From Escherichia coli (GTDB taxonomy: Bacteria; Pseudomonadota; Gammaproteobacteria; Enterobacterales; Enterobacteriaceae): a DNA stretch of 64,000 bases. The notes under the pieces were generated by a model. That model worked only from the letters and a program-made list of their open reading frames with translations. It ran no database searches and was not told the DNA's origin. Made by a program: the position numbers and the translations under genes. Below, in pieces: positions 26,854 to 28,677 of the stretch. Within the stretch, counting starts at the first letter, position 1. Each line of letters opens with the position of its first letter. The stretch lies in the NCBI RefSeq assembly GCF_044324785.1, contig NZ_CP172127.1; one strand, given 5' to 3'.

Positions 26854-28677
26854 TCATCGAGGATCTGACTGGTTGTTTTTAGTATCATCACCACAAATGA
26901 TGGTTAATGCGTTGTAGATCAGTCTGCGTCTGTTCTTGTTTTCAGCATTATTTCCATACAACATCATGACGTTTTTAATATCATCAACCGGTGATATTAC
27001 ATAATCAACCAATACGCCAAGCTTCTCAATACATTGCAGTAAAGTATATTTGTGTCTGCCCGTAAATAATCCTATCAGGTTTTCTTTACTTTCACGACTG
27101 GATAATATTTTGTTCTCTGTAATTAATTCAGCCAACGTTTCACCATCGTAAACACGTTCTTTATCTATCAGAATATTTATCTTATCTAACGCCCTCTCTA
27201 CATTATCAAGAAGACCTGTAATATACGGAGGCTGAATATCTGACTTTGTACTAATATTTGCAAGCATCGAATTATACATTTTAATGACACGCATCAGAGT
27301 AAAATTATTCGCATCATATTGTATTTCATCTTCATTATACGCAGGATCCGTCACGACCCTTAAGTCCATAAATGCATCCTGATAAGCTTTTACATAATCA
27401 AGTAATTCGAACAGTGAACCATGCTTTATTTTCTCCCTGTTTAATTTGATCTCCAGCGCTATCCTGAGAACTGAAAAAGCGCCGGGAAGATACCCAGAAG
27501 GTAACTCGTATTTTGGGGATTCATCATAAAACCGAAGAGCTTTGTGGAGTTTGTTCCGCCGAATCAGATAAATAAGGACGGCCAGTAACATGTAGCACCT
27601 GGTCACATAACCACGGGCATTCTGCAACTGTTCAAAATAATTAATAATGTTTTCCAGATATACATCATCATAACTTTTCTTATCAGAAAGATTAAACACC
27701 ATATCTTTTAAAGATTCGATATATTCTTGTGATTTATCATCAAGTGACACAATATAACGAGTTAATGCTCCTTTGGGGCCACTCTCAAACTCATGAAACC
27801 GTTCAAGTAATGCTCTTGCATAAGGCGTTGTGTCAAAAATATTAAAATCATAAAGATAGCGTGCAGCGTAGCCATACAACCCATGTACCCAAAGCCCTTC
27901 TCTTATCAGCACTCTGAGATAATATGCAATACTGTCAAGTATCTTTACCTTCCGTTGCATATCAAGCAAAATACTTAATGAATAAAATGCATAATAGAAC
28001 TTGTCAATGTTGTTGAGTATTCTGTCCAGCTCACTCTTATCAAGCTTCTTCTCTCTGTAATCCTTCTTGTATTCATTCTTACAGGCCTTTATATATTGTT
28101 TCATAAGGCTCTTCCTTTTACCGTACCCTTTTCGAATAGTTCCCTGGTATTTTCCCAGCTCATACATTTTTCCGTTTTCCCGAAAATCTTCTCTGTTAAA
28201 TCCCAGTTCAGCAAGATACTCCCGGAGATAACGTTTAACGGCAGCCTCATCGCTTTCTGTACCAGAGTAATCCAGGCAGGGACAATATGATTTTTGCAAA
28301 AAATTATAGATATGATAATAAAACCCTGTTTCATTCTCCGGACGATATGTGTTATATATATCCAGCACAATAAAAACAACTCCAAAGCTTTTCAGAAAAT
28401 AGTTACGGATATATTCGGACTTTAATGTTGAATACACAGGGTAAGAATTCATCATGTAATAAAAATATTCATACCGGGAAAATATAATTCGCCGTTGTTC
28501 CAGACTATACACCCCTTCAGCATCAATAATTTGACTGAGCTCATTATAACGTTGATCCCAGAATCTTTGATGCGCTCCAAAATCAGTACTCTTCCGCTTA
28601 TCTCTCGGACTCTCTCCTTCCTTAAACAACTCAAAAACTGTACAAATATCATACAAAAGATTTGTAAACATGCGCAT
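26854..28677 (-). CDS. Hypothetical protein, 607 aa, AT-rich, no recognised domain
   Basis: Long uninterrupted ORF with GGAG RBS; Lys/Asn/Tyr/Ile-rich, predicted helical; no Walker or nuclease motif recognised by eye; divergent from alpA. Confidence 0.6.
   Translation of the reverse strand: MRMFTNLLYDICTVFELFKEGESPRDKRKSTDFGAHQRFWDQRYNELSQIIDAEGVYSLEQRRIIFSRYEYFYYMMNSYPVYSTLKSEYIRNYFLKSFGVVFIVLDIYNTYRPENETGFYYHIYNFLQKSYCPCLDYSGTESDEAAVKRYLREYLAELGFNREDFRENGKMYELGKYQGTIRKGYGKRKSLMKQYIKACKNEYKKDYREKKLDKSELDRILNNIDKFYYAFYSLSILLDMQRKVKILDSIAYYLRVLIREGLWVHGLYGYAARYLYDFNIFDTTPYARALLERFHEFESGPKGALTRYIVSLDDKSQEYIESLKDMVFNLSDKKSYDDVYLENIINYFEQLQNARGYVTRCYMLLAVLIYLIRRNKLHKALRFYDESPKYELPSGYLPGAFSVLRIALEIKLNREKIKHGSLFELLDYVKAYQDAFMDLRVVTDPAYNEDEIQYDANNFTLMRVIKMYNSMLANISTKSDIQPPYITGLLDNVERALDKINILIDKERVYDGETLAELITENKILSSRESKENLIGLFTGRHKYTLLQCIEKLGVLVDYVISPVDDIKNVMMLYGNNAENKNRRRLIYNALTIICGDDTKNNQSDPR

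Follow-up and report, generated by a model that had tools for sequence, protein, structure and literature searches.

In many enterobacterial islands and phage satellites, excision and replication are driven by AlpA-DUF3987 modules. These elements include islands with virulence and defence genes (the serW/serX islands of O157 and O104:H4). Among such elements, PICMI-like satellites are defined by a core of int, alpA and a DUF3987/DUF5906 primase gene, and the model for PICMI satellites takes DUF3987 as its 'prim' component (PMC10803314). In this report, we analyze a stretch of 64,000 nucleotides of Escherichia coli DNA (contig NZ_CP172127.1; hereafter, the window) that contains an island of this already known type, the CP4-57-like or PICMI-like int-alpA-primase islands (PMC10803314). 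Our subject is X607, the working name for the 607-amino-acid product of the open reading frame (ORF) at 26854..28677, together with the divergently oriented gene alpA and a perfect palindrome just past the X607 stop codon. X607 is a lineage-specific backbone gene of satellite-like int/alpA/DUF3987/yfjJ islands, not swappable cargo. Its family is unannotated in all databases searched and has no structural relative beyond itself. Comparisons among islands indicate that X607 and alpA travel together as a cassette, and we tentatively propose that the two genes form a regulatory switch.

X607 as a fixed gene of the island

The genomic loci of distant X607 homologues were fetched, and the neighbours of X607 in the window were mapped onto them. 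In 16 of 16 loci, whose X607 proteins are 17-94% identical, X607 is divergent from alpA, and DUF3987 is the next gene after alpA. In addition, yfjJ and a P4-type integrase gene are found wherever the contig reaches. In the window, these features are as follows.

26854..28677, minus strand: X607; ATG start, 607 codons, clean reading frame; predicted to be all-helical; member of a small uncharacterised family
28766..29026, plus strand: alpA, a Phage_AlpA-type helix-turn-helix (HTH) regulator (RefSeq annotation; Pfam PF05930 in relatives)
29042..30607, plus strand: DUF3987, a YfjI-type primase/helicase-like replication protein, co-transcribed with alpA and present in all 16 X607 loci (annotation)
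30831..32039, minus strand: P4-type tyrosine integrase (annotation; NCBIfam PRK09692 domain, E = 2.9e-54)
25081..25644, minus strand: YfjJ/inovirus-Gp2-like gene, a backbone neighbour (RefSeq name; PF11726 in relatives)

A preliminary description of this DNA had placed X607 in a variable cargo slot near the integrase. That placement fails, because the position and orientation of X607 are constant in all 16 loci and the genes that turn over occupy other intervals. The genes that vary between int and yfjJ encode a CHAT protein, a DUF4062 protein with Abi_alpha and Abi_C, a 157-amino-acid protein, or an H-NS-like protein. Beyond the 3' end of X607 and the palindrome, relatives carry a type I restriction-modification system with an SMC-like ATPase. 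Even where proteins are only 20-33% identical, X607 remains fixed relative to alpA-DUF3987. Homologues do sit in integrase islands, but they do so as fixed backbone rather than as defence genes that are swapped. An AT-rich 'hypothetical' gene beside an integrase should therefore not automatically be regarded as defence cargo.

X607 is a real, uncharacterised gene and not a chance ORF. Its GC content is about 36% (0.36 over 26-28 kb), compared with about 0.50-0.57 for flanking core genes, and a Shine-Dalgarno sequence, GGAG, is located at 28688-28691, 10 nucleotides ahead of the ATG. The protein is 100% identical to RefSeq WP_001242278.1, which is named 'hypothetical protein', and the 2.7-kb region around the gene is 100% identical in many complete E. 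coli genomes, for example, SMS-3-5. A survey of 5426 complete E. coli genomes found X607 or a diverged allele (~77% nucleotide identity) in 233, in the chromosome every time, and E. coli copies are commonly truncated or disrupted by insertion sequences (ISs). Comparison with the allele of O104:H4 strain C227-11, which is 72% identical in amino acids, gives a ratio of nonsynonymous to synonymous substitution rates (dN/dS) of 0.18 at dS 0.9; X607 therefore encodes a protein under purifying selection. The preliminary description had correctly recognized a clean, AT-rich ORF with a ribosome-binding site and a divergent region upstream, as well as AlpA, DUF3987, integrase and YfjJ-like neighbours; the strand has been corrected to minus. 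Its term 'orphan' is apt in that X607 has no database annotation, but a small family does exist.

That family is small and fast-evolving. An exhaustive HMMER search of 1.84 billion representative sequences returned 44 matches, about 15 of which are full length (23-33% identity), and the median X607 identity in our locus comparison is 30%. Near-invariant positions are concentrated in the C-terminal third: LPxGY at residues 392-396, ANNxTxxR…YN at 456-469, L490 and K499. X607 has no match to a Pfam family at E <= 10, including the TPR families, none to an NCBIfam model, and only noise in PHROGs. Ten relatives and the other members of the alignment likewise gave no Pfam, NCBIfam or PHROG match above noise. 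Sequence-profile searches of solved structures and searches of phage records found no match to X607. The family alignment has no Walker, nuclease or methyltransferase signature, in agreement with what the profile libraries show and with what had previously been noted by eye. The HEPN-like R-x4-H spacing that had also been suggested, at RRNKLH (residues 373-378), did not survive: the segment varies freely in an 18-sequence alignment (RKNKIN, SQNKTD, CIDDLP and others), and no Pfam HEPN model matches X607 or its relatives. Because this motif is not conserved, the HEPN idea was dropped.

An AlphaFold2 model built from the family alignment is confident (pLDDT 84, pTM 0.82) and consists of 28 helices and zero strands. 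Foldseek searches of AFDB50 with this model matched only uncharacterised proteins of Enterobacterales and Aeromonas, and a search of BFVD yielded no viral structure. The predicted fold thus appears to be an all-helical, TPR-like solenoid without an annotated structural relative. Given a confident all-helical model whose only fold matches are uncharacterised, X607 is, by prediction, a helical-repeat scaffold of its own kind with no evident active site.

These results bear on the idea, advanced in the preliminary description and widened here, that X607 is a stand-alone effector of anti-phage defence, abortive infection or interference with a helper phage. The island is mobile, relatives hold CHAT, Abi_alpha/Abi_C, type I restriction-modification and SMC-like ATPase genes nearby, and X607 is AT-rich and evolves quickly, all of which are compatible with such a role. 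Also, P4 carries the genes for Sid, Delta and Psu, which manipulate the helper, in an operon that diverges from the vis(AlpA-like)/primase operon, and we count this arrangement in favor of an effector. However, PADLOC-DB 2.0 contains no family that matches X607 at E <= 1 or any of ten relatives at E <= 0.05, and the protein exhibits neither a conserved HEPN spacing nor any other enzymatic or pore-like motif, nor a structural resemblance to a viral protein. Moreover, the position of X607 and its promoter region have stayed fixed throughout a deep divergence in which defence genes at the same loci turn over. Nothing in our results points to a defence role, and we consider it unlikely.

The X607-alpA region and a possible regulatory role

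X607 and alpA are separated by a short region with the following features.

28678..28765, no strand assigned: X607-alpA divergent intergenic region, 88 bp; presumed back-to-back promoters, as read from the sequence
28688..28726, minus strand: conserved control block upstream of the X607 start (…CAGAATGTCCCCTGTGATAAAACGGAAACCAACCGGAG), including GGAG (10-locus alignment)

The gap between the start codons of X607 and alpA is about 90-140 bp in most loci, about 460 bp in two (L011 and L017) and 1.1 kb in one (L012). A block of about 40 nucleotides ahead of the X607 start (…GATACTGTCCCCGTAAAAAAACGGAAACCAACCGGAGG) is near-invariant in 10 loci even though the corresponding X607 proteins are 24-33% identical. 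AlpA modules that lack X607 do not contain a control block of this type. Four such modules from metagenomes (L046, L070, L101 and L150) have another conserved inverted repeat between the palindrome and alpA (…GTCAA…CTGCTTAG…N…CTAAGCAG…GGATGTGG…), so that their control region differs from that of the X607 lineage. In L012, an E. coli B39/EDL933-type island, the 1.1-kb alpA-X607 intergenic region (7890-9000 of that locus) resembles an IS remnant, and the X607 copy is not followed by a TGCTAY palindrome; the cassette may therefore be decaying there.

Comparisons between islands reveal how this region is exchanged. Sliding identity against the O104:H4 island delimits a block at about 25.8-29.05 kb that is 45-85% identical (~77% overall). 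It runs from the AT-rich gap through the palindrome, X607 and the intergenic region to alpA, and stops abruptly at the alpA/DUF3987 junction. Between the same two islands, identity is 93-98% for Gp2, the primase-polymerase gene, the 5' part of DUF3987, and int. In the EDL933/B39-type island, highly similar int (97%), Gp2 (94%) and primase-helicase (91%) genes flank a cassette whose X607, AlpA and DUF3987 are 30%, 77% and 26% identical, respectively, and this cassette is inverted, which produces the CP4-57 layout of int, then X, then alpA-yfjI-yfjJ. A second sharply divergent block relative to O104:H4 lies at 30050-30840 and takes in the 3' end of DUF3987 together with the gap that precedes int (39-86% identity; flanks above 91%); it may point to a C-terminal specificity domain that is exchanged on its own.

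Co-divergence was evaluated with a Mantel test on 23 non-redundant loci. Distances for X607 correlate most strongly with those for AlpA (r = 0.83), then DUF3987 (0.69) and Int (0.38). In some cases DUF3987 has been exchanged (35% identity) while X607 and AlpA remain 87% and 93% identical. Also, of the two sides of the 250-bp alpA gene, the one that faces DUF3987 has breakpoints more often than the one that faces X607. These patterns indicate that X607 and alpA travel as a cassette, and AlpA is the tightest co-diverging partner of X607.

Two distant branches of the family provide a further clue. Their proteins, of 865 and 933 amino acids, retain the entire X607 body and the synteny, and add an N-terminal HTH and a degenerate IS481-type transposase domain (Pfam HTH_29, 6e-6; NCBIfam transpos_IS481, 4e-22 and 6e-19, which is far under the curated cut-off). 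The position that we take to be that of the first catalytic Asp of the IS481 motif appears, by eye, not to be kept. These fusions would tie the X607 family to a role that is directed at DNA and is not catalytic.

We tentatively favor the hypothesis that X607 is a protein-interaction sensor or anti-activator that, together with AlpA, gates excision and replication of the island. The regulatory role, AlpA as the target, and the signal are inferred; in favor of the hypothesis are the fixed position in all 16 loci, the conserved control block, the exchange of the cassette, the co-divergence with AlpA, the HTH/IS481 fusions and the evidence of purifying selection. X607 and alpA would constitute a two-gene regulatory cassette, arranged back-to-back over a short conserved control region, in which X607 would function as a non-catalytic helical-repeat scaffold that works by protein-protein contact. 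It might hold the AlpA-driven programme of excision and replication off, or license it, either through contact with AlpA itself or through an action at the control region that the two genes share. A signal, presumably a product of a helper phage, would then bring about release, by analogy with Rap, AimR or the Stl protein of SaPIs. If so, X607, which co-evolves with AlpA, would be a concrete candidate for the control of alpA.

Several observations weigh against this hypothesis. No DNA-binding domain is detectable in canonical X607 members, in which Pfam searches of X607 and its relatives found no HTH, and the structural matches of X607 are generic. Net charge and isoelectric point (pI) vary widely in the family (pI 5.7-9.2), with no consistent basic charge that would hint at DNA binding. 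Many AlpA-DUF3987 modules lack X607; CP4-57 has the unrelated YfjH in that place, and PICMIs are also without X607 (PMC10803314). Because these modules function without it, X607 is not essential to the basic programme, and the frequency of IS insertions and truncations in E. coli indicates that it is dispensable for the host. Finally, the physical closeness of the two genes (~100 bp) contributes to the co-divergence of X607 and AlpA, and may by itself explain it.

The palindrome downstream of X607

The region that follows X607 contains three features of interest.

26776..26811, no strand assigned: palindrome, CTGCTATTGTTGCTAGCC followed by GGCTAGCAACAATAGCAG; perfect, 18+18 nucleotides, no loop, 42 nucleotides past the X607 stop
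25645..26853, no strand assigned: 1.2-kb AT-rich stretch with no convincing gene and only short ORFs (composition); in the same divergent block as X607-alpA
26684..26764, minus strand: possible small ORF of 26 amino acids (MSEKIKNRNALIFMLFIFRKYYLSFL), starting 11 nucleotides after the palindrome; weak evidence

The perfect palindrome that had been noted past the X607 stop is confirmed at these coordinates, but it is not private to X607. Each arm consists here of two 9-bp TGCTAY-N3 units, and some other copies have three units per arm. It lies 10-125 nucleotides past the X607 stop in 11 of 13 assessable loci. Spacer bases vary among loci while the symmetry stays: in the alignment, pairing holds for 97% of the cells, compensatory changes on both sides affect 11 of the 18 pairs and G-U pairs are almost absent, with controls far lower. 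No further copies of the TGCTAY repeat occur in the window.

As RNA, the palindrome is predicted to fold with -34.7 kcal/mol (z = -5). An intrinsic terminator was nevertheless rejected, because none of eight loci has a T-run, a terminator scan is silent, the symmetry extends through the center and G-U pairs are nearly absent. Therefore, despite the great stability of the RNA hairpin, this is not a standard terminator, and the palindrome is instead a DNA site that belongs to the module itself.

To define the distribution of the palindrome, public collections were scanned for the pattern TGCTA-N4-TGCTA-N2-6-TAGCA-N4-TAGCA. Among viral sequences, 11 contigs match, and the five true palindromes among them each lie beside alpA and/or DUF3987, without X607. 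In metagenomes, at least 120 loci match, and at least 79 are symmetric among the matches listed; within 3 kb of those 79 instances, DUF3987 is present in 56, AlpA in 51 and X607 in 35. When X607 is absent, the palindrome is most commonly located 130-230 nucleotides upstream of alpA, and otherwise between alpA and DUF3987 or 70-260 nucleotides after DUF3987. A degenerate copy lies between alpA and DUF3987 in CP4-57 of K-12. Because the palindrome occurs in AlpA-DUF3987 modules that lack X607, it is a cis-acting site at the level of the module, and X607 takes up the space that separates this site from alpA.

As to function, the palindrome is most likely a replication origin or a site for loading of primase or helicase, or else an array of AlpA-binding sites. 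Its flexible position and AT-rich neighbour are consistent with an origin or loading site. The TGCTA core remains constant while DUF3987 falls to 20-35% identity, and AlpA is better conserved, which is consistent with binding by AlpA. Our literature search found no description of this palindrome or of an origin of AlpA-primase satellites. The palindrome would thus be a candidate origin or operator for the whole of a very widespread module class. A more ambitious proposal combines both parts: an undescribed X607-AlpA switch, in which a helical sensor of new fold sequesters or licenses AlpA until a phage cue arrives, and a TGCTAY palindrome that serves as the unrecognized origin or AlpA array of AlpA-DUF3987 replicons, including CP4-57-like and PICMI-like elements. 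We regard this combination as doubtful.

The palindrome also invites an alternative in which X607 is a replication accessory, that is, an origin-recognition or helicase-loading partner of DUF3987 that acts at the adjacent palindrome. In modules with X607, the palindrome is close to the X607 stop and beside an AT-rich stretch, and a single recombination block holds X607 together with the palindrome and the AT-rich gap. Also, Asn, Arg, Lys, Thr and Tyr abound in the best-conserved segment of X607 (ANNxTIMRSIKxYN, LPxGY), a composition often seen in helices that contact DNA. However, the same palindrome is present where X607 is not, the X607 gene points away from the replication operon, and the protein lacks a consistent positive charge. 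Furthermore, X607 tracks AlpA more closely than DUF3987, and DUF3987 has been swapped (35% identity) while the palindrome and X607 are unchanged. A role of this kind is quite unlikely.

The weakest alternative is that X607 is a long-resident passenger, such as a host-directed or niche factor that was captured once between the palindrome and alpA; although X607 looks inserted into the 130-230 nucleotides that separate these features elsewhere and is often disrupted or truncated, its retention at 17-30% identity with a dN/dS of 0.18, a promoter and 5' region conserved jointly with alpA, and fusions to HTH and transposase domains that keep the same synteny would be unusual for a passenger, which makes this explanation very improbable.

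The small ORF adjacent to the palindrome has a strong ribosome-binding site, GAGGGGG, that is made by the G-run of the palindrome. An in-frame counterpart of 20 amino acids (MSGKRKICNTLICLFILFFN) is present in the O104:H4 allele of X607 with 72% identity, and none was seen in more distant loci. With its basic N-terminus and hydrophobic tail, the predicted peptide is similar in shape to signalling pro-peptides or small membrane peptides.

Surroundings of the island and comparison with known systems

In E. coli, the X607 island lies beside clpA, in the order alpA, DUF3987, P4-type integrase and then clpA. Between int and clpA, at 32195-32440, are two direct copies of a tRNA-Ser-like 3' end with terminator (…CCCTCACCGCCATATTTAAAGAA(A/G)AGCTCGTACGAAAGTACG…TTTTTT), one of which overlaps a sub-threshold match to RtT RNA (43.9 bits versus a cut-off of 45). 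ARAGORN detects no intact tRNA within the whole window; the attachment site of the island therefore looks like remnants only.

Several other genes in the window merit mention. Downstream of the Gp2-like gene, IS66 TnpB and ISL3 insertions interrupt the primase-polymerase/SF2-helicase gene (23852-24877 on the minus strand, and 21717-24057) after 341 codons, whereas the O104:H4 and B39 islands have it intact, with 786 amino acids. The RefSeq name of its product is 'TOTE conflict system archaeo-eukaryotic primase domain-containing protein', and a literature search on 'TOTE conflict system' found no paper. The same island contains a low-GC polysaccharide cluster (12179-20093, minus strand) with glycosyltransferase genes, glf, a DUF4422 gene and genes resembling those for the ABC transporter Wzm/Wzt; the identical locus of SMS-3-5 carries the same annotation, and a JUMPstart-like match is present at 20391-20427. 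At the far end of the low-GC region is a type I restriction-modification HsdM gene (9758-11167, plus strand; TIGR00497, E = 4e-185). Lastly, a second AT-rich ORF (31% GC) of 600 amino acids is located amid a core-like region at 53796-55598 (minus strand), and its sole match is a weak, local one to the Hailong effector HalA (E = 1.9e-5, 24 bits versus a cut-off of 250).

Among characterized regulators, X607 in the proposed role would resemble RapI of ICEBs1, Rap of pLS20, AimR of SPbeta phages and the RRNPP group (NprR, PlcR), helical-repeat sensor proteins that are encoded beside the switch genes of mobile elements and gate excision or induction by binding proteins or peptides. Such regulators have a neighbouring gene for a cognate small secreted peptide; X607 is followed, in two E. 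coli alleles only, by a putative ORF of 20-26 amino acids with a basic and then hydrophobic product. X607 differs from these proteins in having no sequence relation to them and no match to Pfam TPR models, in its length (607 versus about 300-400 amino acids) and in its Gram-negative hosts. Also, RRNPP proteins other than Rap have an N-terminal HTH, whereas in the X607 family an HTH is found only in the two fused, distant branches.

The arrangement is also similar to that of Stl in SaPI/PICI elements. Stl proteins are about 250-300 amino acids long, have an N-terminal HTH, bind the operator and are relieved by a helper protein. Like stl, X607 is divergent from the excision and replication operon across a short control region (88 bp), and it belongs to a highly divergent, 'immunity-like' block between related islands. 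Unlike Stl, canonical X607 proteins have no HTH, which is confined to the fusions with an IS481 domain, and the two are not homologous.

A more immediate counterpart is YfjH of E. coli K-12 CP4-57, which occupies the same slot, divergent from alpA-yfjI(DUF3987)-yfjJ and beside intA; in the EDL933/B39-type island, an X607 paralogue is found in exactly the YfjH layout. Homology between X607 and YfjH (318 amino acids) was rejected: hhalign gives a probability of 0.1%, and YfjH is not among the AFDB50 structural matches.

As for whole elements, the PICMI core is present in the window, where int, alpA and DUF3987 are co-located at 28766-32039, and the P4-type integrase at a tRNA-derived site is another trait shared with PICMI and P4-like satellites. 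No published satellite model includes X607. PICMIs integrate next to fis, are about 6-7 kb long, and are induced and packaged by a helper, whereas the present island, which is far larger, is found next to clpA at a tRNA-Ser-like 3' remnant; it is ridden with ISs and endowed with a polysaccharide cluster, and no helper phage is known for it. P4-like satellites have psu, delta, sid and an alpha-type primase gene in addition to int and alpA; the RefSeq annotation of the identical SMS-3-5 locus names none of these four, and no dedicated profile search for them was run.

The palindrome, for its part, can be compared with iteron or ssi-type plasmid origins, such as the ssiA and ssiB hairpins of RSF1010, which a plasmid primase reads. 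No sequence similarity is known, and an AlpA-binding array fits equally well. The likeness is in layout: short repeats at about one helical turn, an inverted array, an AT-rich neighbour, and a site that travels with a primase gene at varying positions.

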